Made by a program: the position numbers and the translations under genes
Assembly: GCF_900314695.1 (NCBI RefSeq)
Contig: NZ_OMWD01000007.1
Span: 12,641 to 44,640 of the forward strand
DNA: 32,000 bases
DNA from: an uncultured Methanobrevibacter sp.
GTDB taxonomy: Archaea; Methanobacteriota; Methanobacteria; Methanobacteriales; Methanobacteriaceae
Direction: 5' to 3'
The notes under the pieces: model-generated
What the model was told of the DNA's origin: nothing
Database searches by the model: none
Seen by the model: the letters and a program-made list of their open reading frames with translations, nothing else
In this document: positions 7,280 to 27,505 of the stretch, one piece after another
Position numbering within the stretch: the stretch's first letter is position 1
Layout of the letters: each line of letters begins with the position of its first letter

Positions 7280-8532
<1,253 letters not shown>

Positions 8533-9849: not shown

Positions 9850-10041
9850 TAAATATCACCTATTTTTTTCATACTTTTTTATATTTTTTATACAAAATGA
9901 GTCATTCCTCAAGAATCAAACAAAATACTTATTTTTTTTAAAAAATAATTAATTTTGAGCCTCTTTTAAATAAAAAACTTAAAATATTTATATGTCATGA
10001 TATAATAGTATTACTTAATAAATCTAAATTATAGTGATTAA

Positions 10042-10569
10042 ATGAATTATGTTGTTCTTGCAGTTCTTTTTATTCTATCTGGTTTTTTCATGAAATATTC
10101 CGATGACTTATATGATGAGAAACATGATTTGGTTTTTTCAACATTTTTCGGCATTTTATGTGCTATTGCATCTGTTGCAGCTACAGTATACAATACTGGG
10201 GCAGCATATATTTTTATTTCTATCCTAATAGGCAATCTCATAGCTTTAAAAGTAGATGGAATCCATCATATTATTACTTTGATTGTTTTTTTAGCAGTGC
10301 TGTTGGTTGTAGGAATTCCTGATTTGAGTTTAGTTATTTTGCTGATATGTATTTTAACCATTTTGGCTGATGAAGTATGTCATGAAATAATTCCAAAAAG
10401 GACTGAAAACAGGTTTTTAAATTTATTTTTTGAATACCGTTTTTTGATGAAGATTGTAGTATTATTGCTTGCTGTTTGTGGCGTATTTGATATTTGGGTC
10501 TTTGTTTGCTTTATTTTATTTGATTTGTCCTACGCTGGAGCAGGTATTGTTTTTGAAAAATTCAATTAA
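10042..10569 (+). CDS. integral membrane protein (5-6 TM), unknown function
   Basis: 175-aa hydrophobic ORF with acidic loop motifs SDDLYDE and ADEVCHE. No family recognised. Confidence 0.55.
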   Translation: MNYVVLAVLFILSGFFMKYSDDLYDEKHDLVFSTFFGILCAIASVAATVYNTGAAYIFISILIGNLIALKVDGIHHIITLIVFLAVLLVVGIPDLSLVILLICILTILADEVCHEIIPKRTENRFLNLFFEYRFLMKIVVLLLAVCGVFDIWVFVCFILFDLSYAGAGIVFEKFN

Positions 10570-10658
10570 AAAAGTCTGTAAAATTTGGTGTAGATGTTGT
10601 AAAGATGTTATGAAGCATAACTATTGTTTCACATCAATGATTTTTTTAAAAAAAGGTT

Positions 10659-10679
10659 AATGAGAGATAAACTCTCATT
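10659..10679. terminator. bidirectional hairpin between convergent genes
   Basis: AATGAGAG-ataaa-CTCTCATT (8-bp stem), followed by a T-run on the + strand and preceded by a T7/A7 tract. It overlaps the MFS stop codon. Confidence 0.4.
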
Positions 10680-12198
10680 TTTTAATTTTTTTATCCTTTA
10701 ACCTGAACGTCAGGACAAAAACAATAGCCATCAGGGCAGCCGTTACCAGCATTACGAATGCCATTGAATCTTGAATAACAGTATCTGCAATATTAATGAC
10801 AGTACTGTTCTCTGATTTAATTTCATCTACATTTCCTACTTTTTTGAAGTAATCAAAGATGTCTTGATGTACTTGTTCATTTCCTGAATATTCCGGTGCG
10901 TAGGTATCGACTCCATTAGCAATGCCTCCCATTACTCCGAGAATTAGAATTACTCCGATAATTGCCGTACCCATTGATTCACCTAATGTCTGACCGGTTG
11001 TAGTAATGCCTGATGCGTTATTTTGATTTTCATCCGGAATATTGATTAATGCAATATCAGTACTTAAAGCCATTATGAAACCAATTCCAGATCCCAATAT
11101 GAACATTCCAGGCATTAAATTCAGCATTGTTGTATTTATTTTAAATTGATAACTTAAAATCACACATCCGATGATTGCTATTATGCTTCCAATTGCCATA
11201 AGTGACTTGTGATTCAATTTTTCAGTTAAACTTGGAGCTATCGCTGCAAAAATAAGCAAACCTACAGTCAAAGGAAGTGTGGTCAAACCGGTATTGAATG
11301 CATTTAAATTTAATACAGTTTGCATAAACAGGGAAACTACAAATAATCCTCCTCCCATTACAATATAACTCAATAATATAATGATTGAGCCAACGCGTAA
11401 ATTTTTGTCTTTAAATAGGTCCATATCAAGTAATGGTACTTCACCTTTTCTTTTTCTTTTGATTTCAAACAATGCAAATACTGCTAAGGCAATTACGCCT
11501 AAAATAATTACAACTATGCTGGTGGTGGCATCCTCACTCAACATCAAAATACCAAGAACAAATAAAATAAGGCCTATAAATGAAATTATGGCGCCGGTAA
11601 TATCCAAATCTCTTTTGGATTCTGTAGGTTCGAAATCAGGTATTTTATTTCGCATTGCTAAAATAATGATAACGATTAGTAGTTCACTTGCAAACCCATA
11701 TCTCCAACTGAGAAATGTTGTCATTATTCCTCCGAAAAGTGGGCCGACAGCGGCTGAAAGTGCGGCCATTACACTCTCAATTGCCAAAGCAAATGTGCGT
11801 CTTTCTCCGGAATATGTTCCACTTATTATGGAAACGGTTGCAGGTGTCATTAATGCCCCTGCAAGACCTTCTATCACTGCCCATCCGATAAATAACATTG
11901 TATCACTTTGACTTATTGCTGCAATGAATGTACCGATACCATAAAGTACAGCACCGATTAAAAACAGTCTCTTTTTACCAACTATATCTTGAAGTTTGGT
12001 ACTTAACAGCATGAATGCTGCAGTTATGAGGGTATAAAATGCCATGGTCATTTGGATGGTACTCACATTAGTATTCAAATCAGCAACAACCTGGGAAATA
12101 CTAACGTTCATGAATGTAGAATCCAATGTTATAATAAATGAAGCACAGGCCACTAATATCAATGGAATCCAAGAGTGCTCCCTAATAGTTTCATTCAT
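10675..12198 (-). CDS. MFS transporter, 14-TMS DHA2 (EmrB/QacA-like) drug:H+ antiporter family
   Basis: 507 aa with about 14 hydrophobic segments. The early LDSTFMNVSISQV motif and the QDIVGKKRLFLIG loop are typical of the DHA2 subfamily. Confidence 0.85.
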   Translation of the reverse strand: MNETIREHSWIPLILVACASFIITLDSTFMNVSISQVVADLNTNVSTIQMTMAFYTLITAAFMLLSTKLQDIVGKKRLFLIGAVLYGIGTFIAAISQSDTMLFIGWAVIEGLAGALMTPATVSIISGTYSGERRTFALAIESVMAALSAAVGPLFGGIMTTFLSWRYGFASELLIVIIILAMRNKIPDFEPTESKRDLDITGAIISFIGLILFVLGILMLSEDATTSIVVIILGVIALAVFALFEIKRKRKGEVPLLDMDLFKDKNLRVGSIIILLSYIVMGGGLFVVSLFMQTVLNLNAFNTGLTTLPLTVGLLIFAAIAPSLTEKLNHKSLMAIGSIIAIIGCVILSYQFKINTTMLNLMPGMFILGSGIGFIMALSTDIALINIPDENQNNASGITTTGQTLGESMGTAIIGVILILGVMGGIANGVDTYAPEYSGNEQVHQDIFDYFKKVGNVDEIKSENSTVINIADTVIQDSMAFVMLVTAALMAIVFVLTFRLKDKKIKK

Positions 12199-13170: not shown

Positions 13171-14853
13171 CTATAGGTATTTTATATTCAGGCTCTCATT
13201 ACCTGATTTTACATAATCTTTAAGTTCCTTTTCAATTTCCAGAATATTGTTGTTGTATATCAAGTTGTTTGAAAGATTTTCAAATTTTAGATTTTCAACT
13301 TTAACAACTGCATTTTCATTATATATGATAAATGAATCTTCATGCTCTCTTTTGATTATGAATTGTGATGATTTGATATGTGATTTGCCGTTTTCAAGGA
13401 ATATCAAATTGTTGTTAAAGCTGTCTCTTGTAAATCTGGATTTTTCAATTATCAATTCGCTGCTTTCATTATCATTTTGAAATATTATGTTGGAATACTT
13501 GTTTGAAATGTTATTAATGGATTTGCAATTTTTCATCCAAACAATTGAGGCATTGAATAGAACGCTTCCCTGTTTAAACGCTTTGTTTTCTTTAAACCTG
13601 CATTCATCAAGTGAAACATTTCCCTCATTATTGAGGACTCCTCCATTTTTAGCGACGTTTGATTTAAAACAACAATTGTTCAAATCTAAAATCTTTTTGT
13701 TGTCGATTGCACCGCCATTTCCAATGGCTGAATTGTATAAAAAATTGCAGTCAGTCAGTTTCAAATTTCCACAATTGCCTATTGCACCTCCATTATCGGA
13801 ATTTGCAATGTTCTTGTTGAAATTGCACTTTTTCGCCTCAAGGGTGCCTTCGTTTTTGAGGGCTCCTCCGTAAGATGAAATGTTGCAATCGAAATCGCAG
13901 TTGAATAAGCTCAGAGATTTTCCTTTGTTGATTATCGCTCCGCCTTCTTTGGATGTGCCATTCCTGAAGTTGATGTTTGATAAAGAAACATTGTCCGCAG
14001 TGATTTTGAAGATATTTGACATTCCCATGGCATCAATCCTGTGGCCGGCCCCATCAATCCTTAAATTGTCGATGTCAATAACAATCTCATTTTTTCCTTT
14101 AAATTCAATATCGCAATCAAGTTTGATTTCACTTTTTCCGCTTTGAATCAAATCATTCAGGTATTTTGGTGATTTTGCATCATTTGAATTGATGTGTATG
14201 AATCCACCGTGGGTTATCCCATTAATGAAATCCTTTTGAAAGCTTTTGATGTTAATGATTCCAACATTATAAACTTCAATGTCCTGTGCTTTGCGGCCCA
14301 TTTTAAAGTTGCAGGTTTCCAAAGTCAAATCCGATGCATTGAATATTGACGGTCCCTTTGACGAATTGTTGTTTGAAAAATTGGAAAACATCACGGTCAT
14401 GGTCTTTTTGTTGTATATTGCACCTCCAAAGCGAGCAGTATTGCTTCTAAAATCACAGCTATCAATAATTACAGAGCCGTTTTCATTGTAAATAGCTCCA
14501 CCATTGTCTCGGGCGGAATGGTTGTTGATGAAATTGCATTCAATAATTCTCAATTTCCCATTCCTGTTGTAGATGGCGCCTCCGGCCTGATCTGGATGTG
14601 CATTTTTAAAGGTAATGTTTTTTAGGGTAATGTTGTCTCCAGTGATATTGAAGATTTGTTCCCTGTTTGAGGTGATTGCATAGTTTTTCCCGTCAATTGT
14701 GATGTTGTCTGTGTTGATATTGACGGTTTTGGTTAAATCAATGTCCTTTTTTAAAGTGATTTCCTTTAAACCTTTATTGATTAAGGACTCAATGTCATTT
14801 TCATCAATTTCTGGGGAAGAAATAACCTTTGTAATTCTGTCTTTAAAACCCAT
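13171..14853 (-). CDS. parallel beta-helix protein with PMP-type GGAI repeats (Methanobrevibacter 'adhesin-like protein' type), no signal peptide
   Basis: At least 8 GGA(I/L)xN motifs (GGAIYNRNG, GGAIYNENG, GGAIYNKK, GGAIINKG, GGALKNEG, GGAIGNCG, GGAIDNKK, GGVLNNEG) are interleaved with C.F..N motifs. The N-terminus MGFKDRITKVISSPEIDEND is hydrophilic. Confidence 0.75.
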   Translation of the reverse strand: MGFKDRITKVISSPEIDENDIESLINKGLKEITLKKDIDLTKTVNINTDNITIDGKNYAITSNREQIFNITGDNITLKNITFKNAHPDQAGGAIYNRNGKLRIIECNFINNHSARDNGGAIYNENGSVIIDSCDFRSNTARFGGAIYNKKTMTVMFSNFSNNNSSKGPSIFNASDLTLETCNFKMGRKAQDIEVYNVGIINIKSFQKDFINGITHGGFIHINSNDAKSPKYLNDLIQSGKSEIKLDCDIEFKGKNEIVIDIDNLRIDGAGHRIDAMGMSNIFKITADNVSLSNINFRNGTSKEGGAIINKGKSLSLFNCDFDCNISSYGGALKNEGTLEAKKCNFNKNIANSDNGGAIGNCGNLKLTDCNFLYNSAIGNGGAIDNKKILDLNNCCFKSNVAKNGGVLNNEGNVSLDECRFKENKAFKQGSVLFNASIVWMKNCKSINNISNKYSNIIFQNDNESSELIIEKSRFTRDSFNNNLIFLENGKSHIKSSQFIIKREHEDSFIIYNENAVVKVENLKFENLSNNLIYNNNILEIEKELKDYVKSGNESLNIKYL

Positions 14854-15001
14854 GGCTACACCTTGTTTAATAATATATTATTTATTAAATATAAATGGTT
14901 TTTTAACGGTTCTTAATGAAAGCTTTTGCTTTATATGACTTATATTAAATATTCAATAAAAATAGTTCTATATTATAAAACATGTTTTAATTGGTGAAGT
15001 C

Positions 15002-15907
15002 ATGGCGCATGATGTTTTTATTAGTTATTCAACAAAAAATACAGAATATGCAGATGCGGTCTGTAAAAAACTAGAAGATAATGGTATTGAATGTTGGATT
15101 GCACCGAGGAATATTAAAACTGGTACCAATTATGCCAAAGAGATTATGGACGGTTTGAAATTATCCAAACTGGTTGTTTTGATTTTTTCTAAAGACGCGC
15201 AGGAATCTGAATATGTCAACAATGAAATCGATACTGCTTTTTCGAAAAACGGTCAACCTATTGTTGCATTGAAAGTTGATGATTCATTTCCTGAAAAACA
15301 AATGGAATTCTTTTTGAAAAATTCCCAATGGTTGGATGCATCTCCTACTGCACTTAAAAAAGAAAACAAAACACTTGACAGTTGTTATGACCAATTAGTT
15401 GGTGATGTTCAACGCATATTGGATGGAAAAACTCCAGTTTCAGATTCTGGCGGTGTTGGAAACATTGTTATACCTGGCAAGGAAAAAGGATTTTTTGATA
15501 AATATAAATGGCCTATTGTAATTGCGGTTATTCTTTTGATTGCTGTTGGAGGGTTTTTGGCTTATAGTAATATGAACGGTCAATCAGGCAACGGGTCAAA
15601 TGAAACTGGAATGTCTATAGGGTATATTGGTTTGGAAAAATATGGTGATGCCTACACTTATTTTGTATTTGGAGATATTGCTGAAGGATTCAGCAACTCA
15701 TCTAGTGATGTGATTCATATTGATTATTATGACAATTCTGGAAAAGTTGTCAAAAGCAGCAATACTAAAATTGGTGATGTTGACGGTAATATTTTAGGTT
15801 CTGTTGACGTAAACAAAAAGGATATAGTTAAAGTTTCAGCACAATTGCAGAATAAGGACAAAAAGGTATTGTATAGTGTAGAAAGTGATAATATTATAGA
15901 ACAGTAG
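15002..15907 (+). CDS. TIR domain - TM helix - small extracellular domain protein (paralogue 1)
   Basis: HDVFISYSTKN...GIECWIAPRNIKTG.NY..EI...LKLSKLVVLIFSKDAQESEYVNNEIDTA...PIVALKVDD is a TIR_2-type domain that includes the conserved Glu (NNEID). The TM helix is KW-PIVIAVILLIAVGGFLAY (aa 170-188) with Lys-rich residues on its N side. The C-terminal ~110 aa carry a VIHIDYYDNSGKVV (FxLYD-like) motif. A GGTGA SD precedes the ATG. Confidence 0.85.
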   Translation: MAHDVFISYSTKNTEYADAVCKKLEDNGIECWIAPRNIKTGTNYAKEIMDGLKLSKLVVLIFSKDAQESEYVNNEIDTAFSKNGQPIVALKVDDSFPEKQMEFFLKNSQWLDASPTALKKENKTLDSCYDQLVGDVQRILDGKTPVSDSGGVGNIVIPGKEKGFFDKYKWPIVIAVILLIAVGGFLAYSNMNGQSGNGSNETGMSIGYIGLEKYGDAYTYFVFGDIAEGFSNSSSDVIHIDYYDNSGKVVKSSNTKIGDVDGNILGSVDVNKKDIVKVSAQLQNKDKKVLYSVESDNIIEQ

Positions 15908-15918
15908 TGGGGTTTATT

Positions 15919-16794
15919 ATGGCTGATGAGGTATATATCTGTTATGATGAACGGGACTTGGAAATGGCAAAAAAGGTTTGTGACACTTTAGAGGACAATG
16001 GATTGGATTGCTGGTTGAAAAACCGTGACACCGGCGCAAAACACATGGTTGATGAAATCATGAATGCAATCAAAAAATCCAAAGTTATGGTTTTGTTATA
16101 TTCACAAAACTCCAAGGATTCCAATTTTGTTAACAATGAGGTGGATATTGCATTCGCAGAAAAAAGATCAATTTTGGTCTTTCAAATTGATGATTCAAAA
16201 TTGGACGGCAGTTTAGAATTCTTCTTGAGGAATAAACCTAGGATTCAAGCTTATCCAAATCCTGAAGATAGATTTGACCGTTTGGTTCAAAACACTTCAA
16301 AACTTGTAAAAGAACAGTCAGCAATCGACAGGAACATTGGTAATGTTATTAAAAATCATAAAGTTCCAGTAATTATTGGAATTGTAGTTATTTTGCTTGT
16401 TGTAGGTGTTTTAGGATATATGATGTATAATGGAGGAAGTGGCACAACGAATGCCACTCAAATAAAAGCAGGTGATATTAAGCTCAATATCACAGATTTC
16501 CATGTGGATGATGTCAGAAAGGAAAAAACTAACTGGAACTACTCTTATTATGTGGGTGGAAAAATTTCTCCAGCACCTGGTGATCAGGATGGGTGCGTGA
16601 TTGTCGTTGATTTCTATGATGAATCAGGTAAACTGGTTGAAACAACAGAAACTCCATTTAAAGATGCTCAAAAGGTTAGTTCTGGATTTTTACTAGGATC
16701 TGCAACATCTGATAAGAACAATATTAAACTTGCAGATGCCCAATTGGTTAATAAGGAGAATATTATTATTGCTCAGGATGAAGCGCAATTATGA
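15919..16794 (+). CDS. TIR domain - TM helix - small extracellular domain protein (paralogue 2)
   Basis: EVYICYDERD...GLDCWLKNRD...KKSKVMVLLYSQNSKDSNFVNNEVDIA...ILVFQIDD. The TM helix is VPVIIGIVVILLVVGVLGYMMY. The C-terminal domain has VIVVDFYDESGKLV. An alternative GTG start at 15907 would overlap the upstream stop (TAGTG). Confidence 0.85.
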   Translation: MADEVYICYDERDLEMAKKVCDTLEDNGLDCWLKNRDTGAKHMVDEIMNAIKKSKVMVLLYSQNSKDSNFVNNEVDIAFAEKRSILVFQIDDSKLDGSLEFFLRNKPRIQAYPNPEDRFDRLVQNTSKLVKEQSAIDRNIGNVIKNHKVPVIIGIVVILLVVGVLGYMMYNGGSGTTNATQIKAGDIKLNITDFHVDDVRKEKTNWNYSYYVGGKISPAPGDQDGCVIVVDFYDESGKLVETTETPFKDAQKVSSGFLLGSATSDKNNIKLADAQLVNKENIIIAQDEAQL

Positions 16795-16818: not shown

Positions 16819-17598
16819 ATGGATAAAAAATATATTCTAATAATTCTTTTGATTGCAGTGATTGCCGTGGTTGGAGGTTATTTCCTATTGAATGGAAACA
16901 ATATTCAAACTGTATCCGGCGAACAAACTACAATTGTTTTAAGTAAATCAGCATATATGGAAGTTCCTAAAGATTCAAATGCTACATCCAATGCTGATAA
17001 AAAGGGAATTTTCTATTATAAGGATAAAGATGATAATATAAACATTACTAGTTGTTCCAATTTGTCCGCTTCATCAAGTGTTAAGGAAATGAAGAAACTT
17101 AAGAATTCAGTTTCAACCGGAGCCAAGAAAATGGTTGAAAACGATGTGGTTGTGTATGAAAAGGATGGTATATACTCAGTATTCGCTAAAAATACTCAGT
17201 ATAATGATACCTTATTGATACAATCATCTGATAAAAACGTTTTATTGGCATGTTGGAATAGTGTTAAATACCACGATCCAACCGATAAAATTAAGTTTAA
17301 CGGTACTGCAGGCGATAATGGATCTGGTTCTGTAGTTAATGCTATCGAGCAAACTCAAAGTGCTGTTCAGGCTAGTGAATCTTCTTCTAGTTCTTACAGT
17401 GAGTCATCATCTTCCAGTTCCTCATCCGATTCATCTTATGATTATTCAGGTTCTGGTAGTGGAGGTTACAGTGACTTTGGTTTTGACACTGGTTCATCCA
17501 GTTCAGGTTCCAGTTCTAGTGGATCCAGCGGCGGGGGTTACAGTGACTTTGGTTTCGGATACTTTGGTTACTATAGAGATTTAGGATTTATCCTTTAA
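16819..17598 (+). CDS. signal-anchored extracellular protein with a Ser/Gly-rich tail and GGYSDFGF repeats
   Basis: N-terminal TM helix (YILIILLIAVIAVVGGYFL), a ~150-aa soluble domain, then SESSSSSYSESSSSSSSSDSSYDYSGSGSGGYSDFGFDTGSSSSGSSSSGSSGGGYSDFGFGYFGYY. A GGTGA SD lies 8 nt before the ATG at 16819. Alternative starts are at 16798 and 16810. Confidence 0.65.
   Translation: MDKKYILIILLIAVIAVVGGYFLLNGNNIQTVSGEQTTIVLSKSAYMEVPKDSNATSNADKKGIFYYKDKDDNINITSCSNLSASSSVKEMKKLKNSVSTGAKKMVENDVVVYEKDGIYSVFAKNTQYNDTLLIQSSDKNVLLACWNSVKYHDPTDKIKFNGTAGDNGSGSVVNAIEQTQSAVQASESSSSSYSESSSSSSSSDSSYDYSGSGSGGYSDFGFDTGSSSSGSSSSGSSGGGYSDFGFGYFGYYRDLGFIL
17464..17555 (+). repeat. 20-nt direct repeat ggttacagtgactttggttt (17464..17483 and 17536..17555) within a low-complexity Ser/Gly coding tract
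   Basis: Read directly from the sequence. It encodes the duplicated GYSDFGF peptide. Confidence 0.8.
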
Positions 17599-17815
17599 TC
17601 TCTTTTTTTCTATTTTCATGTACATGGGTATTTTAACAATTTTTCTTTTTATGGTTCATCATGTTTTTTCAGTAAGTAATGGTCAATTAAACTGATGGTT
17701 TTGTGCTTTTTTTCATTTTAATTAATGACTTCTTTACAAATATTTGACTTTTCAAGTGGCACTGAATATCGTTTTTCTTAATTAAAGCATTTGCTTTACA
17801 TTAGAATTTAAAATA

Positions 17816-17901: not shown

Positions 17902-20157
17902 ATGGGTGAAAGTAATTTAAGACAATATATTGATGATTTTTTTGATGAATTAATCCTCTATGATGATTATTACAATGGCCATTACTATAAAATGCTGTTA
18001 AAAACAGGAATTGATGTTTTTCTAGATAATGAGAATTCATATACTGCCTATGAAATTTATAGGACATTTTTCATGATTTATCAGATCTCACATGAAAACA
18101 AATCTGAAAAACATTCTCCTAACGAAATAAAAATCGTTAAAGAGAAAAATATCCTTTTGGATTTGGTTAAGACAATGAAAGATTATGAAGAAAATACTGG
18201 AGATTTGATTGAAAAGCAAAGGGACCATTTTATTCACTCTGTAAATGTTTTTCTATTAGGATTGGCAATTTATTCTCAAAATAAAAGTTATAGGGATAAA
18301 TTCAAACAGTATGTTCTTAATAGTCCTTATAAAAAATATTATAGGATTGACGGCGAATTTTCTCATGAGGAATTTTTATACCGTTGGGGTGTAGCAGCCC
18401 TTTTCCATGACATAGGTTATCCTGTTGAAATTATTGGAAAACAATTAAAAAAATTTATCAATGATGGAATTAAATCTATTTCAAGTAGCTACAATGCCGA
18501 TACTGCAATTGATTTTAAAGATTTCAATGAATTTAACACAATCGTTAAAAAGGATCCTAATTTTGCAGACAAATACACTTCCGTTTATCCTGAAGCAAAA
18601 TTTTTAAACTTATTTAAACCTACTGACATCATGGCCCATAAGATTTCTACTGATTTTAAGGGAATTGATGTTAATCAGGTAATCAAACACCTTGACTCCT
18701 TTGTTGACATCATGGGGGACAGCGGTTTTATCGACCACGGGTTCTTTTCATCAATTTTGGTTTTAAATTCCTACGGGTATCTGATTCAAAAATATGCTAA
18801 AAACAATGATTTCTTCTTTTATCCGATAGTTGACAGTGCTACAGCTATTCTGTTGCACAACTATTATAGAAATGTTTTGCAAAAAAAGCCTTTTGATTTA
18901 AAAACTTTGCATCCGTCTCAATCTCCATTGGCGTTCCTGCTGATTTTATGTGATGAGCTTCAGGAATGGAACAGACAGCCTTTTGGTGTTAAAGACAAGC
19001 AAAGAAGCCATGTAAATGAATTGGTTATAAATATTGATGACAGGGGAATGGATGTGGAATATATTGTTAGGGAAGGTGCAATGGGACTCGGCTTTTCTGA
19101 AGATAAAGAGGAATTCCTTAAAACAGTCTTATCATTAAGAAGCATTTTCAAATTTGGTTTGAGAATAATCACCGATGTTTCACAGGATAACATTATTAGG
19201 GAAAATGTTCACTCAGAAGCTCAAGCGCCGGATATCCTGCTTAGAAATGTTGAAACCATTGCTATTCAAATTCACAATCAGTATGTGGAAACCACCAAAC
19301 AGCAATATGAAGAAAAGCTTGCACTGGGTGAAGAAATTGATGATGAATTCATGGAAAAATACAATAACCTGACTACATTTGATGAGTTAACTCCACAGCT
19401 TAAAATAGCAAACATTAGACAGGCAAGGTCAATCCCAAATAAATTGGATATCATCGGCTGTGAAATTGCATCTAATGATGATGAAAGAGATGCAATTTTA
19501 AGATTCTCTAAAGATGAAATTTTGGATTTGGCTATTCTGGAGCATCAGGAATGGTGTGATGAAAAAATAGGTACTGGTTGGACTTTGGGTGAAAAAGATG
19601 TTGAGAATCTCGTTACTCCTTATCTTGTTCCATGGGATGAGTTGACAGAGGATATTCAACAGTATGATATTGACCCTATTAAGAACATTATTCCGCTTAT
19701 GGATTCTTTAGGGTTGAAGGTTGTAAGAACTAAAGAGAGGCTTTTAACATTTGAAATGCATAATTTTTACTCAGAATATAACAAGAGTGCCGGTCATTTC
19801 GATGATTTGCCAAGCTATATTAAATATTCCAACTATAAACAGACTGATTTCCTTTTAAGAATCTTGTCTGAGTTGGGTTATGATGTAATTGATATTGAAG
19901 ATGCTGGTGAGACAGTAATGTCATTTGATGAGGATTCAATTGAATATTTAGCTAAAAGGGAACATAATGAGTGGTATAAACTTAAAGTTAACTTGGGATG
20001 GACATATGATGCAGTCAAAGATGATGTGGCAAAAACCAACCCTAATTTAGTGGAATGGGATCAGCTTGACCATGAAACCAAGGAGCTGAACAGACGCACA
20101 TTCAGAAACCTCCCTCAATTATGTGGAAATGTTGGCTTGAAAATTGTTAAAAATTAG
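17902..20157 (+). CDS. HD-domain phosphohydrolase fused to four RyR (ryanodine-receptor-type) repeats, paralogue 1
   Basis: HD motifs: RDHFIHSVNV (H109/H112), AALFHDIGYP (H169-D170), IDHGFFSS (H279), AILLHNYY (H319) and LILCDELQEWNR (D351). Canonical RyR-type repeats: LAILEHQEWCDEKIGTGWTLGEKD...TPYLVPWDELTEDIQQYDIDPIKNI...LGLKVV, and LAKREHNEWYKLKVNLGWTYDAV...NPNLVEWDQLDHETKELNRRTFRNL...VGLKIV. Each is preceded by a divergent repeat (IAIQIHNQY...FDELTPQLKIANIRQARSIPNKLDIIGCEI, and LTFEMHNFY...FDDLPSYIKYSNYKQTDFLLRILSELGYDV). An AGGTG SD is present. Confidence 0.8.
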   Translation: MGESNLRQYIDDFFDELILYDDYYNGHYYKMLLKTGIDVFLDNENSYTAYEIYRTFFMIYQISHENKSEKHSPNEIKIVKEKNILLDLVKTMKDYEENTGDLIEKQRDHFIHSVNVFLLGLAIYSQNKSYRDKFKQYVLNSPYKKYYRIDGEFSHEEFLYRWGVAALFHDIGYPVEIIGKQLKKFINDGIKSISSSYNADTAIDFKDFNEFNTIVKKDPNFADKYTSVYPEAKFLNLFKPTDIMAHKISTDFKGIDVNQVIKHLDSFVDIMGDSGFIDHGFFSSILVLNSYGYLIQKYAKNNDFFFYPIVDSATAILLHNYYRNVLQKKPFDLKTLHPSQSPLAFLLILCDELQEWNRQPFGVKDKQRSHVNELVINIDDRGMDVEYIVREGAMGLGFSEDKEEFLKTVLSLRSIFKFGLRIITDVSQDNIIRENVHSEAQAPDILLRNVETIAIQIHNQYVETTKQQYEEKLALGEEIDDEFMEKYNNLTTFDELTPQLKIANIRQARSIPNKLDIIGCEIASNDDERDAILRFSKDEILDLAILEHQEWCDEKIGTGWTLGEKDVENLVTPYLVPWDELTEDIQQYDIDPIKNIIPLMDSLGLKVVRTKERLLTFEMHNFYSEYNKSAGHFDDLPSYIKYSNYKQTDFLLRILSELGYDVIDIEDAGETVMSFDEDSIEYLAKREHNEWYKLKVNLGWTYDAVKDDVAKTNPNLVEWDQLDHETKELNRRTFRNLPQLCGNVGLKIVKN

Positions 20158-20171
20158 TGTCGGTGGAAATT

Positions 20172-22535
20172 ATGGATAATGGGGGAAGTTCTACTAATAT
20201 CGGCAAGTATGTTGATAAGTTCTTTGACATGCTGGTTTTATACGATGATAATCTGGTATTTAAGGACGGTACAAAAAGCAATCATGACTATAAAGGCCTT
20301 CTAAAAGCAGCAATTGATGTATTTTTAAACCATCAATCCAACTATACTGCTTATGAGGTCTATCAAACTTTTTTCATGATGTATCAAATCACTCCTGAAG
20401 ACAAAAGTGAAATCGATGAAAAAAGCCCTGACGTTTTGATTAGTGAACCCAATTATCTTCTTGATTTGGTAGACATAATGAGAAAGTATGAGGAAAATAC
20501 TGGTGAATTGATAAACTGGCAAAGGGACCATTTCATCCACTCAGTCAATGTTTTCATATTGGGTTTAGCAGTATATGCTCAAAATCAATCTTACAGAGCC
20601 ATATTTCAAAATTATATTCTTAAAAATAAGCATTATAAAAAATATTATCGGATTGATGGCAATTTTTCTCATGAGGAATTCCTATATCGATGGGGTGTAG
20701 CAGCGCTGTTTCATGATATAGGCTATCCATTTGAAATAATAGGAAAACAGCTGGATAAGTTAATCGAAGATGGGATAAAAAACATTTCCCATAGCTATGA
20801 CAATGTCAAGATGGGTCTTGATTTTAGGGATTTCGATGAATTTAATGTAATTGCCAAGCTGGATCCGTTTGATTATGCAGACCAATACCGTGAAAGATAT
20901 TCAGATTCTAAAGTTCTAGACTTATTTAAGCCTACAGATATTATGGCTCATAAGCTCAAATTGGACTTTGGATTTGACAATGAAGTATATAAAAAGTTAA
21001 TCAAACATCTCAACGGTTTTCCCAGATTCATGACTGAAAGGGATTTTGTTGACCATGGATTTTTCTCAGCTATCTTGGTTTTGAATTCCTATGGAAAACT
21101 GATACAGAAATATGCAAAAAAGGATAAGGATTTCTTTTTCTATCCTATTGTAGATAGTGCTACTGCAATCCTGCTTCATAATTATTACAGTAATGCCCTA
21201 CAAAAGCCACCCTTTAATTTTGGCAAGCTAAGGCCTAAACAGTCTCCAATTTCTTATTTGTTAATTTTATGCGATGAGCTTCAGGAATGGAACAGACAGC
21301 CATATGGCGTTTTGGATGTAAAGGAAAACCATGTAAACGATTTGGATGTTGTCATTGATGATGAATACATGAAGGTTATCTATATTTTAAATAATGGGCC
21401 TATGGGTTTTGGATTTTCCAAAAAGAAGGATGATGTGATTGATAATGTCTTGGAGATTCAGGATATTTTCCTTGGTAAATTATCCATCAGAACAAAAATT
21501 GAATTGGATAATGTTATAAGGGACATTTCCATTGCTGAAATTCAAACTCCCAATATTTTACTAAGAAATGTTGAAAAATTGGCCAGGCAAATCAATGATG
21601 AGTACAATGAGGAATTGAAAGCCAAACTGGATGAAGCCATTAAAAAAGGTGATGAAAAGGAAATTGAAGAATATAAAGAAAAATGTTCATATTTATGTGA
21701 TTTTGAAGATTTAAGTGCCGATTATAAAATTTCCAATATTCGTCAGGCAAAATCAATTCCAAAGAAATTGAGCATGATAGGATGCGAAATTGCACACATT
21801 GATGATGAAAGGGACGAAATCACCAAATTTGATGAAAAGGAGATTGAGGATTTGGCGATATTTGAGCATGTTGACTGGTGCAGGGAAAGAAAAGGTACCG
21901 GATGGTCTTATGGTGATGTAAAAAATCCTGAAGAGCGCAGAACACCTTATCTTGTCTCATGGGAAAAGCTTCCTGATGATATAAAGGATATGGATCGAAA
22001 AGCAACTGAAAATATTCCAAATCTTTTAAATTCAATTGGTCTGAAAGTCGTTAGAAATAAAATCAGATTGCTTACCTTTAAAATGCATCAGTTTTATGAA
22101 ACAGGCAGTTTGGATGATAAGTCAGATGGTGAAAAAAGATTTAAGGAATTGCCGAAGCATGTTCAGTATTCCAATTATAAGCAAGCCGATTATCTGGTTA
22201 AAATTTTAAAGGAAAAAGGATTTGAATTGGTTTCTCTAAATGATTCAAGGGATAAAATTCATAGATTTGATGAAGAGGATATTGAATATTTCGCCAAAAG
22301 GGAACATGAAGGGTGGTTAAAACTTAAACTTAATTTAGGTTATGCACATCTTCCGATTGACGAATCAGATATTCAAAAAATAGAAGAAGGTATTCGAGAG
22401 TCCCATAATCCAAATCTTGTTTCCTGGAAAGACCTTGATATAAATGTTAAAAAGGCAAATAAGGATACTTTCATCAATCTTCCGAAATTATGTGAAGACC
22501 CGAATGTAGCTTTAAAAATTGTCAGAAGGCAGTAA
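20172..22535 (+). CDS. HD-domain phosphohydrolase fused to four RyR-type repeats, paralogue 2
   Basis: Same architecture and motifs: RDHFIHSVNV, AALFHDIGYP, VDHGFFSA, AILLHNYY, LILCDELQEWNR, LAIFEHVDWCRERKGTGWSYGDV...TPYLVSWEKLPDDIKDMDRKATENI...IGLKVV, and FAKREHEGWLKLKLNLGYAH...NPNLVSWKDLDINVKKANKDTFINL. A GGTGGA SD precedes the ATG at 20172. An alternative GTG at 20157 overlaps the upstream stop (TAGTG). A 29-nt string (gatgagcttcaggaatggaacagacagcc) is identical in both paralogues. Confidence 0.8.
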   Translation: MDNGGSSTNIGKYVDKFFDMLVLYDDNLVFKDGTKSNHDYKGLLKAAIDVFLNHQSNYTAYEVYQTFFMMYQITPEDKSEIDEKSPDVLISEPNYLLDLVDIMRKYEENTGELINWQRDHFIHSVNVFILGLAVYAQNQSYRAIFQNYILKNKHYKKYYRIDGNFSHEEFLYRWGVAALFHDIGYPFEIIGKQLDKLIEDGIKNISHSYDNVKMGLDFRDFDEFNVIAKLDPFDYADQYRERYSDSKVLDLFKPTDIMAHKLKLDFGFDNEVYKKLIKHLNGFPRFMTERDFVDHGFFSAILVLNSYGKLIQKYAKKDKDFFFYPIVDSATAILLHNYYSNALQKPPFNFGKLRPKQSPISYLLILCDELQEWNRQPYGVLDVKENHVNDLDVVIDDEYMKVIYILNNGPMGFGFSKKKDDVIDNVLEIQDIFLGKLSIRTKIELDNVIRDISIAEIQTPNILLRNVEKLARQINDEYNEELKAKLDEAIKKGDEKEIEEYKEKCSYLCDFEDLSADYKISNIRQAKSIPKKLSMIGCEIAHIDDERDEITKFDEKEIEDLAIFEHVDWCRERKGTGWSYGDVKNPEERRTPYLVSWEKLPDDIKDMDRKATENIPNLLNSIGLKVVRNKIRLLTFKMHQFYETGSLDDKSDGEKRFKELPKHVQYSNYKQADYLVKILKEKGFELVSLNDSRDKIHRFDEEDIEYFAKREHEGWLKLKLNLGYAHLPIDESDIQKIEEGIRESHNPNLVSWKDLDINVKKANKDTFINLPKLCEDPNVALKIVRRQ

Positions 22536-23765: not shown

Positions 23766-24833
23766 ATGTTAAATTCACTATATGAAAAAGCCATCGCTAA
23801 AAGAGGATTTATACAAGATATTGAGTCAGACAATAATTTGGATGCTCAACTTGAAGTAAACTGGTTTTCAAGAGAATTCAGTGAGAGTTCTGATGATTTT
23901 TCCATCGCTGCGGGAGATGGGAGCTTCAACAAAAAGAAGTTTTTAAAAAGCAACTTCTGTGCTGTAGGTGCCGAATCCATAATTTACGATGGTGAAATAA
24001 AAAAAATCGATGATGCTGATATTTTGGAAGTAAATCATATCTCTTTTTTGGATGAGCTTTTAAGCAGTTATATGTCAATATTGGAACTTAAATGTGCGTC
24101 TAGGGCTATCAAGGAATATGATGTAGATTATTACTTATTCGATGGATCCATTTTAGGAGATTTGGAAAATGCATATCCAAGAGGTGCTGAACTTCCATCC
24201 AAAATCAGAGATAACTTGGATGAAACCATTTTGAATGAATTTAAGAGAAGATTGGAAATAACACCATTTGGATTCGTATTTCCTCAAATTAAAGAAAGAA
24301 TATTGGCTGATGTAAGTGTAAATGAGGAATTTGAGCAAAAGGAAGATTTTGACCTTCATTTGTCTTCAATCGAGAAAATAATATTGTTAAAAGAAATTTT
24401 GGAAAACAAGAAAAAAATCATTTCAATATCCAAAACATCTTCAGACAATGATTTGTTTGGATGGAACATTCCGGACATTTCAATTTTAGATAATTTGACA
24501 GATAAAAAGCAGGGAATATCAAGAATTGAGTATAGGCGAGTCTATAAGAATGCATCTTTCCAGTATTTCAATGATTTTTTCAAACAATTGAAATTTACGG
24601 TATTTTATGTAAGGCTTCAGGACAATAAAAATGTATTGAAAGTTGAATTGCCTTACAAAGCATCGATAAGTGAAGTTGTAGATGTTGTAGAGAAGATAAA
24701 TGTATTGTCAGTTCAAGGTTATCCTTATTTGCTGAGTAAGGCACATAATGATGTAGTCATTACTGACAGGAATATTAAAGAATTATTAAAACTTGCTAAA
24801 ATTTATGAAACAACAAACAGGGAAATGTTATAG
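23766..24833 (+). CDS. nurA: DNA double-strand-break repair nuclease NurA
   Basis: IAAGDGSFNKK (catalytic Asp motif), YYLFDGSILGDL and a C-terminal GYPYLLSKAHNDVVI. It sits immediately upstream of herA. Confidence 0.8.
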   Translation: MLNSLYEKAIAKRGFIQDIESDNNLDAQLEVNWFSREFSESSDDFSIAAGDGSFNKKKFLKSNFCAVGAESIIYDGEIKKIDDADILEVNHISFLDELLSSYMSILELKCASRAIKEYDVDYYLFDGSILGDLENAYPRGAELPSKIRDNLDETILNEFKRRLEITPFGFVFPQIKERILADVSVNEEFEQKEDFDLHLSSIEKIILLKEILENKKKIISISKTSSDNDLFGWNIPDISILDNLTDKKQGISRIEYRRVYKNASFQYFNDFFKQLKFTVFYVRLQDNKNVLKVELPYKASISEVVDVVEKINVLSVQGYPYLLSKAHNDVVITDRNIKELLKLAKIYETTNREML

Positions 24834-24842
24834 GTGGTTTAG

Positions 24843-26342
24843 ATGGTAGTTGGAATTTGTGTTGGCGAAACATCACTTTCAGAAGTTACTTTCATTTCAG
24901 ATAAGATGCCGAAAGTTGGAGAATATGTGACTATTGAATACGATGGAAAAAAAGTATTGGGAATGATTGAAAATCTAATTAGAGGTAATGATGCTTTAAA
25001 TGTTGATATCAACGATTTCAAAGCCATTCGAAAGATTTCACAAATAGGTGCTGAGGATAACTATATTCGAGGTAAAGTAAAGATTCTTGGAGATGTCAAT
25101 GATAATCTGAAATTGCCGAGAACCCCTGTGCTTCCTGGAACTGAAATAAAGCTGGCTGACAGGGATACTTTAAATGAAATATTCAAGGTTAACAATCCCA
25201 TTAAATTAGGATGTCTTGTAAATCAGAGTGATGTGGACGTTAATGTTGAAGCAAACCCAATTTTGTCAAGACACCTTGCAATTTTAGCAATGACTGGAGC
25301 TGGAAAATCAAATACTGTATCTGTTTTAATAAATGAAATGTTAAGTTATTTTGTTCCGGTATTCGTATTTGATATGCATGGTGAGTATGTTGGAGCCAAT
25401 TTCCCAAATGGTGAAGTTAATGTTATTAAACCTAAAATAAATCCTGTTTACATGTCTTTTCATGAGATAAAAAGATTGGTTAACATTCCGAGTAATGGTT
25501 ATATTCAGGAAAGACATTTCAGAAGAGCATTTAAGACAGCTAAGGAAATGGTTCGCAGTGGAACAGCACATACAAATAACTTTTTACAAATTATTTATGA
25601 TATTCTATTAAGCGATTCTCAAGAAGAGGGCTCAGACAAGCAAATTGTTGATGTAATGAATAAGATTGACGATTCGATGGATAAGTATGCCAATATCTTT
25701 GACAATAACATTGGAAATATATTGACAAACATTAAAATAGGTCATGTTAATGTTTTGGACTTAAGCCAGTCTGACGAATCAATTGCAAATGTATTGGTAA
25801 GTCATATTATGAGAAATGCTTTGCAAATGAGAAAAAATGCAGTTCATGGAAAAGATGAAAGAGCATTGGATTTTCCAGTATTTTTCATATTGGAGGAGGC
25901 ACATATATTGGCTCCTAATAAACGTGATTCAGATTCAAAACGTTGGATTCAAAGGGTTGCTAGAGAAGGACGTAAATTCGGATTGGGATTATGTTTGGTA
26001 AGTCAGTCTCCAAAAACAGTTGACCATGATGCATTGTCCCAAATGAATAATATGATTATTTTGAGGCTTGTTGAACCTGAAGACCAAAGGCATGTTCAGT
26101 CTGCAAGTGAAAGTTTATCACAGGATTTGGTTAATCAGCTTCCATCCTTAAATGTTGGTGAAGCTGTTGTTTTAGGTTTGATGAGCAAAGTACCAACTCT
26201 TGTCAAAATTGATGAATTTAAAGGTCGTCTTCATGGGGATGACATGGATATTGTTTCCTATTTTGCTGATATCAGGCAGAAAGAACAAGAAGAAATTGAA
26301 GAGTTGGAAAAAGAAAGCATGGAAATGGGTTATAATTATTAA
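24843..26342 (+). CDS. herA: DNA double-strand-break repair helicase HerA
   Basis: N-terminal HAS-barrel-like region, Walker A LAMTGAGKSNTV, Walker B FFILEEAHILAP and REGRKFGLGLCLVSQSP. An AGGTGG SD is present. Confidence 0.9.
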   Translation: MVVGICVGETSLSEVTFISDKMPKVGEYVTIEYDGKKVLGMIENLIRGNDALNVDINDFKAIRKISQIGAEDNYIRGKVKILGDVNDNLKLPRTPVLPGTEIKLADRDTLNEIFKVNNPIKLGCLVNQSDVDVNVEANPILSRHLAILAMTGAGKSNTVSVLINEMLSYFVPVFVFDMHGEYVGANFPNGEVNVIKPKINPVYMSFHEIKRLVNIPSNGYIQERHFRRAFKTAKEMVRSGTAHTNNFLQIIYDILLSDSQEEGSDKQIVDVMNKIDDSMDKYANIFDNNIGNILTNIKIGHVNVLDLSQSDESIANVLVSHIMRNALQMRKNAVHGKDERALDFPVFFILEEAHILAPNKRDSDSKRWIQRVAREGRKFGLGLCLVSQSPKTVDHDALSQMNNMIILRLVEPEDQRHVQSASESLSQDLVNQLPSLNVGEAVVLGLMSKVPTLVKIDEFKGRLHGDDMDIVSYFADIRQKEQEEIEELEKESMEMGYNY

Positions 26343-26521
26343 TCCTATTTCTTTTTTTTAATTTTAATATTAATTTTTCCTTATAATATTGTATGGACTT
26401 ATTTAGAAACTTATTTATATTAAATTGCTTATATAATTACTTAAAATTAAATATTGGAATTTATTATTTGTTTAAAAGCAATTTTACATATTAATAGCAA
26501 TTTTTCAATATTAAATCAATA

Positions 26522-26929
26522 ATGGGTACAATCATGTTTCAATGGAAAGATTTCAAAACGGTCGGCGATGAATTGATGGCTAATTCGCAGGGAGCATATA
26601 TAAGATGTGCTACAAGCAGATATTATTATTCTATTTTCGGTTCAACAAGAGAATATTTAATCGATATTATGAATAAACATCAATTTTGTAACGGAAAAGA
26701 TATTCATAAAAGAGTATCTGACGAGTTAATTAAGTCTAATGATCCAAATGAGGTAAATTTGGCTGAATGTTTAAAATTTTTAAGGGAAGTTAGAAACCGT
26801 GCTGATTATGATAGATTAAATGAATGTAATACTTTTTTTAAAAATAATTCTGATAAGTTTGTTGATACAACAAATGATGCATTTAATTCATTAAATGTGT
26901 TAATGAATAATCCGCCATATAATTTTTGA
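26522..26929 (+). CDS. HEPN-like domain protein
   Basis: RCATSRYYYSIFGSTREYL (the aisRaYYaxF helix) and LKFLREVRNRADYD (the R-N-x-A-D-Y helix-4 motif) resemble PF05168/SAV_6107-type HEPN domains. There is no canonical Rx4-6H histidine. An alternative start is at 26534. Confidence 0.6.
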   Translation: MGTIMFQWKDFKTVGDELMANSQGAYIRCATSRYYYSIFGSTREYLIDIMNKHQFCNGKDIHKRVSDELIKSNDPNEVNLAECLKFLREVRNRADYDRLNECNTFFKNNSDKFVDTTNDAFNSLNVLMNNPPYNF

Positions 26930-26938
26930 GGTGTTATT

Positions 26939-27331
26939 GTGGATGATTTGGATTTCGTTAAAAAATTAGAAAGTAATGCGGAGTTATTCAACAGAGAATA
27001 TGATAAATTGGGAGAATTTTATAATGTTCGTCATTATGAAAAAATTCATGATTACTTTGTTAAACATAAGGGCCTTATTGTATTATTAAATAAACTTAAA
27101 TCTAGGTTATCTGAAGATTTTCCTACTGGTAAATTTGATTTAGTGCATTATACTGATTATGAATATTCAGATTGGTCTTATATTTTGTTATATATTAAAG
27201 TTGATGATTATACATTTAATAATGGGGTTATGGAAGATATAAAAAAGATTACTTTTGATTTTATTCCATTAAGACGTAAATTAGGTGTAATGTCTGATTT
27301 GTCTTTAAGGCCTGCATTATATGATTGCTAA
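26939..27331 (+). CDS. hypothetical protein, translationally coupled partner of the HEPN-like protein
   Basis: The GTG start is preceded by a GAGGTG SD that overlaps the HEPN gene stop. It is 130 aa, with no family and no MNT-type GSx10-20DxD motif that I can recognise. Confidence 0.5.
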   Translation: MDDLDFVKKLESNAELFNREYDKLGEFYNVRHYEKIHDYFVKHKGLIVLLNKLKSRLSEDFPTGKFDLVHYTDYEYSDWSYILLYIKVDDYTFNNGVMEDIKKITFDFIPLRRKLGVMSDLSLRPALYDC

Positions 27332-27505
27332 TCAAATTTAAGTCATTTATTTTCATTTTCTTTTTAAATTTTAAATTCATTTTACTTTTCAACTGCTCTC
27401 TTTCCAAACTATTAAATATACTATATGATAAAATATTATTCAATTAAATACTTTGATTTAAGTGTTTAAATTGGTTATATACAATTGACAAAAAAAGGTA
27501 ATATA

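Follow-up and report, generated by a model that had tools for sequence, protein, structure and literature searches.

A three-gene cassette of Methanobrevibacter encodes paired TIR proteins with single membrane helices and predicted immunoglobulin-like ectodomains

A 32,000-nucleotide stretch of DNA from an uncultured Methanobrevibacter (contig NZ_OMWD01000007.1, positions 12,641 to 44,640 of the forward strand; called the window here, and its numbering is used throughout) carries two tandem genes, A and B. Each encodes an N-terminal TIR domain joined through one transmembrane (TM) helix to a predicted immunoglobulin (Ig)-like domain. We found that the pair belongs to a cassette with a third gene, C, for another predicted single-pass protein, and that the three genes share a history of their own at a conserved chromosomal site. 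Our preferred reading, put forward tentatively from sequence comparison and structure prediction, is that the cassette encodes a heteromeric outside-in sensor. Its clustering may activate NAD+-cleaving (NADase) chemistry of the cytoplasmic TIR domains in a conflict or recognition role.

The three-gene cassette

The features of the cassette, all on the plus strand, are as follows.

14940-15001, plus: intergenic region upstream of gene A with TATA-like A/T-rich boxes and, 4 nt ahead of the ATG, a GGTGA motif like a ribosome-binding site; presumed to hold the promoter and to begin the three-gene unit
15002-15907, plus: gene A, A-type TIR-TM-Ig protein of 301 residues (open reading frame, ORF; Pfam TIR_2, E 1e-21; AlphaFold2 model)
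15002-15421, plus: TIR domain of gene A, residues 1-140, which includes the YVNNEID helix and, in the BB-loop region, the motif CWIAPRNI of the clade
15224-15226, plus: codon GAA, E75 of gene A (YVNNEID), aligned with AbTir E208, the PdTir glutamate and TcpO E279
15506-15574, plus: TM helix of gene A, KWPIVIAVILLIAVGGFLAYSNM (hydropathy; AlphaFold2 helix 169-183), with GKEKGFFDKY just before it
15599-15904, plus: ectodomain of gene A, predicted Ig-like beta-sandwich of about 102 residues (AlphaFold2, Foldseek), with NET and NSS sequons
15919-16794, plus: gene B, B-type TIR-TM-Ig protein of 291 residues from MADEVY (ORF; TIR_2, E 8e-17)
16138-16140, plus: codon GAG, E74 of gene B (FVNNEVD), at the catalytic-glutamate position by alignment
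16363-16431, plus: TM helix of gene B, VPVIIGIVVILLVVGVLGYMMYN (hydropathy)
16456-16791, plus: ectodomain of gene B, predicted Ig-like, homologous to that of gene A
16819-17598, plus: gene C ("g3"), about 259 residues (ORF), with a basic MDKKY N-terminus, an N-terminal signal-anchor helix, a globular ectodomain of about 135 residues and a Ser-rich tail
17599-17660, plus: T-rich tracts resembling an archaeal terminator, and from their sequence a putative one; an A/T-rich spacer of about 300 nt follows before the next gene

The ORFs confirmed two tandem TIR-TM proteins at 15002-16794, as an earlier note on this DNA had described, with a single remark on coordinates. Gene B could also start at a GTG (15907), giving 295 residues. 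Because its orthologues begin MADEVY or MSHEVY, the ATG at 15919 is most likely the true start. The same note had treated the TIR pair alone and was incomplete in this respect, having missed the gene at 16819-17598. The intergenic gaps measure 11 nt between A and B and 24 nt between the stop of B and gene C. The Ser-rich tail of gene C carries repeated GGYSDFGF motifs, and its ectodomain has no sequence match in Pfam or the PDB. Homologues of gene C form 97 clusters, annotated as hypothetical. All clusters with a source name come from Methanobrevibacter, and among these no homologue was found outside the genus.

Synteny was assessed by tblastn with the window proteins as queries; the loci searched came from a scan that took one genome for each species. 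In the eight syntenic Methanobrevibacter loci with a full-length relative of A (L001-L008), the order is A-B-C without exception, with 39-89% identity between orthologues of gene A and 44-95% between those of gene B. Since each paralogue is orthologous to its own counterpart at every one of these loci, the A/B duplication is old and both copies have been retained. An A-type/B-type pair in the same order is also found at unrelated sites (L095/L096 and L097). At L095/L096 the pair is followed by a surface protein of 1,330 residues with Peptidase_C1, lectin and Big domains; at L097 it comes after surface proteins of this type and is accompanied by a gene C homologue.

A metagenomic contig (L098, 1-2352) carries a normal A-type gene (346 residues) followed by P0219 (393 residues). 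In P0219, a B-type TIR domain, linker and TM helix are fused to the ectodomain and Ser-rich tail of gene C, and the Ig-like domain of B is absent. The fusion, seen on a single contig, suggests a Rosetta-stone-type link between B and C. The junction between B-type and C-type sequence lies in or just before the TM helix. We also noted that the TM helices of A, B and C (16834-16902 in C) are alike, being rich in Ile and Val with an AV(G/V)G(F/Y) small-residue motif and then N-G, and that basic residues stand just before them (K-Y/H-K in A and B, K-K-Y in C). This likeness could reflect helix-helix packing or shared descent of the anchors.

TIR domains and the catalytic glutamate

The Pfam TIR_2 profile (PF13676; curated cut-off 28 bits) matches A with 78.2 bits (E 1e-21, residues 5-114) and B with 62.2 bits (E 8e-17). 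The two proteins are paralogues, with 31% identity over their full length including the C-terminal domains (E 5e-41). The AlphaFold2 model of protein A, built on a 22-sequence alignment, has a mean predicted local distance difference test score (pLDDT) of 82. The TIR and C-terminal domains are mostly above 90; confidence is low to moderate for the TM helix (169-183) and low for the linkers on either side of it. When the N-terminal part of the model was compared with the PDB by Foldseek, only TIR domains were returned. Among them are Hydra TRR-2 (TM-score 0.80), AbTir (0.75) and SARM1 (0.72), together with RPP1, RPS4, RUN1, MAL, PdTir and BtpA. The match probability is 1.0 for TRR-2, RPP1, AbTir, SARM1, RUN1 and MAL, indicating a flavodoxin-like TIR fold.

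The A-type proteins share the motifs DVFISYS and CWIAPRNI..G.NYA, and the B-type proteins EVYICYD and CW..[RS]RD.G..H.VD; the form CWLKNRD-TG..H.VD of the latter recurs in the B protein of L095 (L095_B) and in P0219. The BB-loop motifs of the two types thus differ, and each is conserved within its own type. In active TIR assemblies, the BB-loop region makes contacts between TIR domains.

The glutamate of the NNE(I/V)D helix had been placed at the catalytic position of TIR NADases from the sequence alone, and alignments to three proven enzymes bear this out. A HMMER alignment to solved structures sets E75 of A opposite the glutamates of AbTir (NYELD) and PdTir (QKELD). MAFFT aligns E75 of A, E74 of B, E279 of TcpO, the AbTir and PdTir glutamates and those of two TM-linked relatives from bacteria in a single column without variation. 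For TcpO, the TIR construct sequence given in the supplement of PMC10022894 was used, in which residue 76 is E279. The glutamate is also invariant among 22 family members, and protein A is 33% identical to the TcpO TIR domain over 81 residues (BLASTP). TcpO, from Methanobrevibacter olleyae, depletes NAD+ in a glutamate-dependent manner (PMC10022894, PMC10937652). Taken with the predicted model, the alignments strongly support a match of A and B to proven NADases in both TIR fold and catalytic glutamate; the glutamate alone is no proof of catalysis by them.

Membrane topology

Each protein has one strongly hydrophobic stretch of 19-23 residues (about 169-191 in A and 149-171 in B), followed by about 105-115 residues. 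Lys-rich residues precede both KWPIVIAVILLIAVGGFLAYSNM and VPVIIGIVVILLVVGVLGYMMYN, in agreement with the basic stretch and single TM helix first described. Neither protein has a signal peptide, as had also been stated, and the first TIR strand, betaA, begins at residue 4-5.

Charges were counted over 15 residues on each side of the TM helix. In 80 archaeal family members with one TM helix, the mean number of Lys and Arg is 2.76 on the TIR side and 0.18 on the C-terminal side; 76 of them have more on the TIR side and none has the reverse. The bacterial relatives behave in the same way (higher on the TIR side in 30, lower in one). The TIR domain has fewer N-X-S/T sequons than expected (0.46 per 100 residues; shuffled expectation 0.76) and the region after the TM helix has more (2.39; expectation 1.57), a density about five times that of the TIR domain. 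Longer family members carry a low-complexity linker of up to about 200 residues, rich in Lys, Glu, Ser and Asp, and it always lies between the TIR domain and the TM helix. In the bacterial relatives, PT-rich linkers and surface-type domains are found C-terminal to the TM helix.

In P0219, the gene C ectodomain stands in frame behind a B-type TIR domain and TM helix, which places it on the same side of the membrane as the C-terminal domain of B. The lack of a signal peptide, the charge bias, the linkers, the sequons, the signal anchor of gene C and the fusion together lead to a topology with the TIR domain in and the C-terminal domain out. We regard this orientation, which the earlier note had proposed, as strongly supported by sequence; the charge bias, the sequons and the bacterial surface-type domains all agree with it.

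Ig-like ectodomains

When the C-terminal domain of A was modelled alone, the prediction was an eight-stranded beta-sandwich (pLDDT 91.7; predicted template modelling score 0.85). The top 50 Foldseek matches are Ig-like domains of GH2 glycosidases and macroglobulin MG domains, with TM-scores of 0.5-0.67 and a best E of 9e-4. The homology of the A and B ectodomains, noticed at the outset, is confirmed by the full-length alignment and by the Ig-like models. The ectodomains had further been likened to an Ig-like fold of the FxLYD/DUF4352 type. Of this proposal, the Ig-like sandwich is upheld by AlphaFold2 and Foldseek. The DUF4352/FxLYD identity was rejected, because a Pfam scan of 16 family C-terminal domains at E<=10 gave no match to either and Foldseek returned only generic Ig-like sandwiches. 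In that scan, 11 of the 16 domains match Big_15 weakly (best E 8e-4). A profile search with the C-terminal domain alone retrieved only five short proteins, either TM plus C-domain fragments or stand-alone domains, and is uninformative about other fusions.

Evolution of the cassette

The cassette always lies just upstream of the PcrB-NurA-HerA genes, or of a pair of RyR-domain genes described below. Protein identities were compared for pairs of loci.

Window and L007: PcrB 96%, NurA 90%, A 42%, B 51%, C 57%
L005 and L006: PcrB 96%, NurA 90%, A 35-36%, B 43%, C 54-56%
Window and L001 (more distant): PcrB 88%, NurA 74%, A 68%, B 74%, C 68-69%

The same pattern is seen in the DNA. Between the window and L007, an 8.3-kb block of 80.6% identity starts exactly at 17902, after the downstream spacer of the cassette, and within the cassette only patches of about 64% identity can be aligned. 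Between the window and L001, identity is 74% in both the cassette and the downstream region. Over 36 pairs, identities of the three cassette proteins correlate with one another (r = 0.92 for A and B; 0.79 and 0.81 for A or B with C), and they show no correlation with those of NurA or PcrB (r between -0.17 and 0.21). Thus, A, B and C share one history that is uncoupled from the surrounding chromosome, being passed on, and probably moved between lineages, together. This history fits recombination that replaced the whole cassette, alleles that diverged and have long persisted, or a very fast rate of divergence.

Divergence is even across the TIR and Ig-like domains and highest in the linker and TM helix. 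The family has expanded into several loci per genome, and from this expansion and the fast, cassette-wise turnover we infer a conflict or recognition role; the rapid divergence in particular argues for such a system rather than a housekeeping one. The suggestion that the diverged pair forms hetero-oligomers, made when only A and B had been recognized, gains support from the constant pairing and order of the genes, the type-specific BB-loops and the co-divergence of A and B.

Neighbouring genes and host

7280-7813, minus: CTP_transf_like protein of 177 residues (E 6e-18)
13171-14853, minus: adhesin-like protein of 560 residues with Chlam_PMP/POMP repeats, upstream of the cassette in divergent orientation
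17902-20157, plus: RyR-domain protein of 751 residues (C-terminal RyR, E 3e-27), with a weak HD-like motif
20157-22535, plus: RyR-domain protein of 792 residues (C-terminal RyR, E 9e-16)
23766-31485, plus: canonical archaeal DNA-end-resection operon of NurA, HerA, two small ORFs (26522-27331), an Mre11-like phosphoesterase and Rad50 with a zinc hook

The window has a low G+C content (about 31%) and carries archaeal markers, namely PcrB/GGGP synthase and the NurA-HerA-Mre11-Rad50 operon. The archaeal host proposed before is thereby borne out, the organism being Methanobrevibacter. The closest public DNA is L002, from an uncultured rumen Methanobrevibacter (90-95% nucleotide identity). Strong matches to the PADLOC "HerA" models come from the housekeeping operon gene and do not mark a defence system here; HerA and NurA were rejected as defence genes, being part of the canonical operon.

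The two RyR-domain proteins are paralogues of about 55% identity, and neither has a match in PADLOC or NCBIfam. The pair is present only in the window, L002, L007 and L008, on the same strand, directly downstream of the cassette and before PcrB. It is 81-98% identical between loci whose cassettes are 42-89% identical. Limited to four loci and diverging separately, the pair is a lineage-specific insertion and not a partner of the cassette. An obligate partner or effector role was rejected because the pair is missing from most loci and shows no co-divergence.

Adhesin-like genes are highly abundant in Methanobrevibacter. In L002, a 5.6-kb insertion (L002 4238-9871) with further genes of this kind lies just upstream of the cassette and separates it from the adhesin gene. 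The cassette copies at L095 and L097 likewise have adhesin-like proteins at their flanks, and Peptidase_C1, lectin and Big domains occur in some of these. The CTP_transf_like protein fits an archaeal nicotinamide-mononucleotide adenylyltransferase of NAD biosynthesis in size and family, and is a candidate only; its position 7 kb from the TIR genes is probably a coincidence.

The wider TIR-TM family

A search with the TIR domain of A matched the representatives of 23,677 clusters (50% identity level) at E<=1e-3, and of 11,441 at E<=1e-10. At least one TM helix is predicted in 69 of 137 newly retrieved top representatives. The bacterial TIR domains closest in sequence, 34-50% identical and with CWIAPRD as a common motif, come from 62 loci. 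Of these, 45 encode a TIR domain with a single TM helix and then about 100-670 C-terminal residues, and five encode multi-pass proteins. A second TIR gene is present at only seven of the 62 loci. The hosts include Chloroflexota, Acidobacteriota, Bacteroidales and Clostridia, among others. The C-terminal regions comprise PT-rich linkers and PPC, 3-keto-disaccharide-hydrolase-like, WD40, FGE-sulfatase, BspA-type LRR_5 and DUF6273 domains. The architecture had been presented as notable in an archaeon; this survey shows that it is common in the nearest bacterial TIR clade.

Methanobrevibacter also has a second kind of TIR cluster (L010-L018), with several per genome, for example four in the metagenome-assembled genome RGIG2231. 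One of these (L014 9451-14821) encodes an N-anchored protein of 181 residues, a TIR protein with two or three TM helices (precomputed Pfam PF27171) and a TIR-TIR-TM-Ig protein of 463 residues. The gene for the last is followed by five paralogous N-anchored or secreted proteins of about 140-175 residues and a TnpB-like gene. No homology between gene C and these small N-anchored exoprotein arrays was detectable by phmmer or with a nine-sequence hidden Markov model. The same TIR clade includes multi-TIR proteins with three to seven tandem TIR domains and up to 2,330 residues, most of them without a predicted TM helix (P0062, P0113, P0222-P0230, P0242, P0247 and P0278).

TIR domains, TIR NADase chemistry and archaeal TIR NADases are already known. 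The only annotations of family members are "TIR domain-containing protein" and "hypothetical protein", and in the literature we found neither this cassette nor any prokaryotic TIR-TM-ectodomain protein described. The passages on the relevant terms in a TIR survey (PMC7075850) and in a conflict-systems paper from the Aravind group (PMC8195603) do not describe the architecture.

Comparison with known systems

AbTir, PdTir and TcpO resemble A and B in the TIR fold (TM-score 0.75 for AbTir) and in the aligned glutamate. All three are soluble and have no ectodomain. In TcpO the TIR domain (residues 204-341 of 341; PMC10022894) is C-terminal and follows a non-TIR region, as it does in AbTir and PdTir, whereas in A and B it is N-terminal and membrane-tethered, and their genes are paired and accompanied by a third membrane protein. 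TcpO was therefore rejected as the same type of protein, its TIR domain being C-terminal and AbTir-like. Coming from the same genus, it does show that a TIR domain of Methanobrevibacter can be a glutamate-dependent NADase (PMC10022894).

The ThsB proteins of Thoeris are small TIR proteins that, like A and B, often occur in several tandem copies, and they serve as infection sensors (PMC13434031). The ThsB_TIR profile (PF08937) matches the two TIR domains with 30.0 and 30.9 bits (cut-off 21.2). The PADLOC ThsB models reach only E 5e-5 to 5e-6, and NCBIfam ThcB4 gives 23.5 bits where the cut-off is 220. No ThsA-type effector (SIR2-SLOG, Macro-TM or caspase-like) was found in the neighbouring ORFs with Pfam, PADLOC and NCBIfam, or among the Pfam gene calls and the ORFs read at related loci. 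ThsB proteins are cytosolic, whereas A and B are predicted single-pass membrane proteins with ectodomains. Among models for the TIR effectors of CBASS or Pycsar (TIR-SAVED, PycTIR), PADLOC SAVED_TIR matches over its TIR part only (profile positions 14-133 of 404); neither a SAVED domain nor a cyclase gene was found in the proteins or nearby. Membership in a known defence system was rejected, since PADLOC and NCBIfam gave domain-level TIR matches only.

Animal Toll-like receptors (TLR) and interleukin-1 receptors (IL-1R) also have an ectodomain, one TM helix and, in the cytoplasm, a TIR domain. In the account of the TIR survey, members of the IL-1R family have Ig-like ectodomains and form heterodimers with an accessory chain (PMC7075850), an arrangement that A, B and perhaps C would parallel. 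The proteins had been described as type II analogues of TLRs. The type II architecture stands; IL-1R is the closer analogy, given its Ig-like ectodomain and accessory-chain heterodimer. The animal receptors are type I, with a signal peptide, an N-terminal LRR or Ig ectodomain and a C-terminal TIR domain, whereas protein A has its TIR domain at residues 1-140, its TM helix at about 169-191, a C-terminal Ig-like domain and no signal peptide. Their ectodomains have no detectable sequence relationship to those of A and B, which also have no MyD88-like adaptor. The animal TIR domains signal by scaffolding, whereas A and B retain the NADase glutamate. The likeness is thus an analogy of architecture only and not one of family membership. 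The bacterial TIR-TM proteins share with A and B the N-terminal TIR domain and the single TM helix at about residues 155-190; they differ in having large, varied ectodomains, being mostly encoded by single genes and having no gene C homologue that we could find.

Proposed mechanism and alternative explanations

In the proposed mechanism, genes A, B and C would form one transcription unit encoding a heteromeric complex of three single-pass membrane proteins, with the N-anchored ectodomain of gene C on the same outer face as the Ig-like domains of A and B. A cue at the ectodomains would cluster or rearrange the complex in the membrane; virus adsorption, damage to pseudomurein and contact with a foreign surface are candidate cues. 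TIR NADases are inactive as monomers, and self-association builds the active site across two TIR domains. Through clustering, TIR domains of the A and B types would join in an asymmetric, active assembly. This assembly would then cleave NAD+, leading either to its depletion, with growth arrest or abortive infection, or to a signal derived from ADP-ribose. That a cue from outside would be coupled to NAD+ chemistry at all is purely what we infer.

Several observations weigh against this proposal. No recognized defence gene or Thoeris-type effector adjoins the cassette by Pfam, PADLOC and NCBIfam, and the neighbours are the housekeeping genes PcrB-NurA-HerA-Mre11-Rad50. According to the survey's passage on the residue, the glutamate is present in over 70% of all TIR domains and is not in every case a predictor of activity (PMC7075850). 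As the aromatic residue four places ahead of it, AbTir, TcpO and PdTir have Trp, and A and B have Tyr or Phe. A simple arms race with a ligand predicts ectodomains that are hypervariable relative to the TIR domains, and this was not seen. Carriage by viruses was rejected, as IMG/VR gave TIR-only matches (35-39% identity) and no full-length relative. In L002, gene A (10001-10842, P0002) has an in-frame deletion of 15 residues (SKLVVLIFSKDAQES) that removes the core strand betaC of the TIR domain. This copy keeps the NNEID glutamate, is 86% identical overall and 91% over aligned positions, and belongs to a cluster of five member sequences; gene A may be inactivated or dispensable in the L002 lineage. 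Lastly, in one protein (P0083, 356 residues, from the Joint Genome Institute, on a single 1.3-kb contig) a CarboxypepD_reg/PEGA-like domain occupies residues 143-217, after the TIR domain and before the TM helix and so on the presumed cytoplasmic side; this is the only observation that is discordant with the proposed topology.

The TIR domains could instead be non-enzymatic modules for homotypic or heterotypic interaction, as in TLR, IL-1R and MyD88, and serve an envelope or adhesin-like surface biology with no NAD+ chemistry. We consider this unlikely. It would suit the position beside core genes, conserved in eight species, although a structural complex with a housekeeping task would not usually diverge cassette-wise and independently of its genome. 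Most loci have adhesin-like surface proteins within a few kb, and at L095 and L097 these directly adjoin the pair, yet such adjacency is weak evidence when these genes are so abundant in the genus. PADLOC and NCBIfam found no effector or defence neighbours, but the best defence-model matches of the TIR domains are enzymatic (TIR-SAVED, ThsB and Aga-TIR). Where the survey discusses it, the glutamate is an unreliable predictor of catalysis (PMC7075850); it is nevertheless invariant in both paralogue types and in the bacterial relatives.

A role in allorecognition or kin discrimination, in which polymorphic A/B/C surface receptors bind, through their Ig-like ectodomains, matching or non-matching partners on neighbouring cells and the TIR domains execute the response, seems to us improbable. 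The Dictyostelium proteins TgrB1 and TgrC1 are a polymorphic pair of single-pass Ig-like receptors; their resemblance to A and B is a functional analogy only, with no sequence relationship. The adjacent pair of single-pass Ig-like ectodomains with an accessory exoprotein would fit such a role, as would the deeply diverged cassette "alleles" at one conserved locus in close species, where all three genes co-vary, and the lack of any virus-related neighbour among the matches obtained with PADLOC and IMG/VR. However, the ectodomains are no more variable than the TIR domains.

It is very improbable that the cassette is one half of a Thoeris-like two-part system with the RyR proteins (17902-22535) as the effector that senses a nucleotide made by the TIR domains. 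Both TIR domains exceed the ThsB_TIR cut-off (30 and 30.9 against 21.2 bits), and several thsB genes are common in Thoeris loci (PMC13434031), but the RyR proteins match nothing in PADLOC or NCBIfam and lack SLOG, Macro, SIR2 and caspase domains. The RyR pair follows directly on the same strand in the window, L002, L007 and L008, yet five of the eight syntenic loci lack it, as do L095 and L097; about 300 nt of intergenic sequence with T-tracts lie between it and the cassette, and the two do not co-diverge (81% for RyR and 42% for the cassette, window against L007). The inverted topology, with the TIR domains outside and the Ig-like domains inside, is scarcely credible: the domain between TIR and TM helix in P0083 is of a kind that is usually extracytoplasmic, but there is no signal peptide, betaA starts at residue 4, the positive-inside comparison gives 76:0, the TIR domain is depleted in sequons and the C-terminal domain enriched, the bacterial relatives have surface-type domains and PT-rich linkers after the TM helix, gene C with its classical N-terminal signal anchor supplies the ectodomain to a B-type TIR-TM protein in P0219, and NAD+ is cytoplasmic.

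Implications

To our knowledge, every prokaryotic TIR system characterized so far, namely Thoeris, CBASS and Pycsar effectors, SPARTA, retron-TIR and Cat1, detects infection from within the cell. The broader proposition, which we hold to be more doubtful than the sensor role of this cassette, is that prokaryotes have true outside-in TIR receptors. Here, A/B/C would detect a surface event such as virus docking, wall damage or a non-kin cell, and the clustered TIR domains would cleave NAD+. If so, such receptors would include the bacterial TIR-TM-LRR, TIR-TM-FGE-sulfatase and TIR-TM-WD40 proteins, and the receptor logic of IL-1R and TLR (ectodomain, one TM helix, TIR domain and hetero-pairing) would exist in archaea and bacteria with an enzymatic output. 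Surface sensing would then be a new entry point for TIR immunity, since a TIR domain with an extracellular domain would let the NAD+-cleaving switch be thrown from the surface, before or without genome entry.

Methanobrevibacter is the dominant methanogen of the rumen and the human gut, and the cassette is among the fastest-changing features beside a conserved core block. It is thus a candidate for determining resistance to viruses, or else interactions with other cells and with the host. With two proteins of about 300 residues and one of about 260, it would also offer a compact set for studying the activation of TIR domains by clustering in the membrane.

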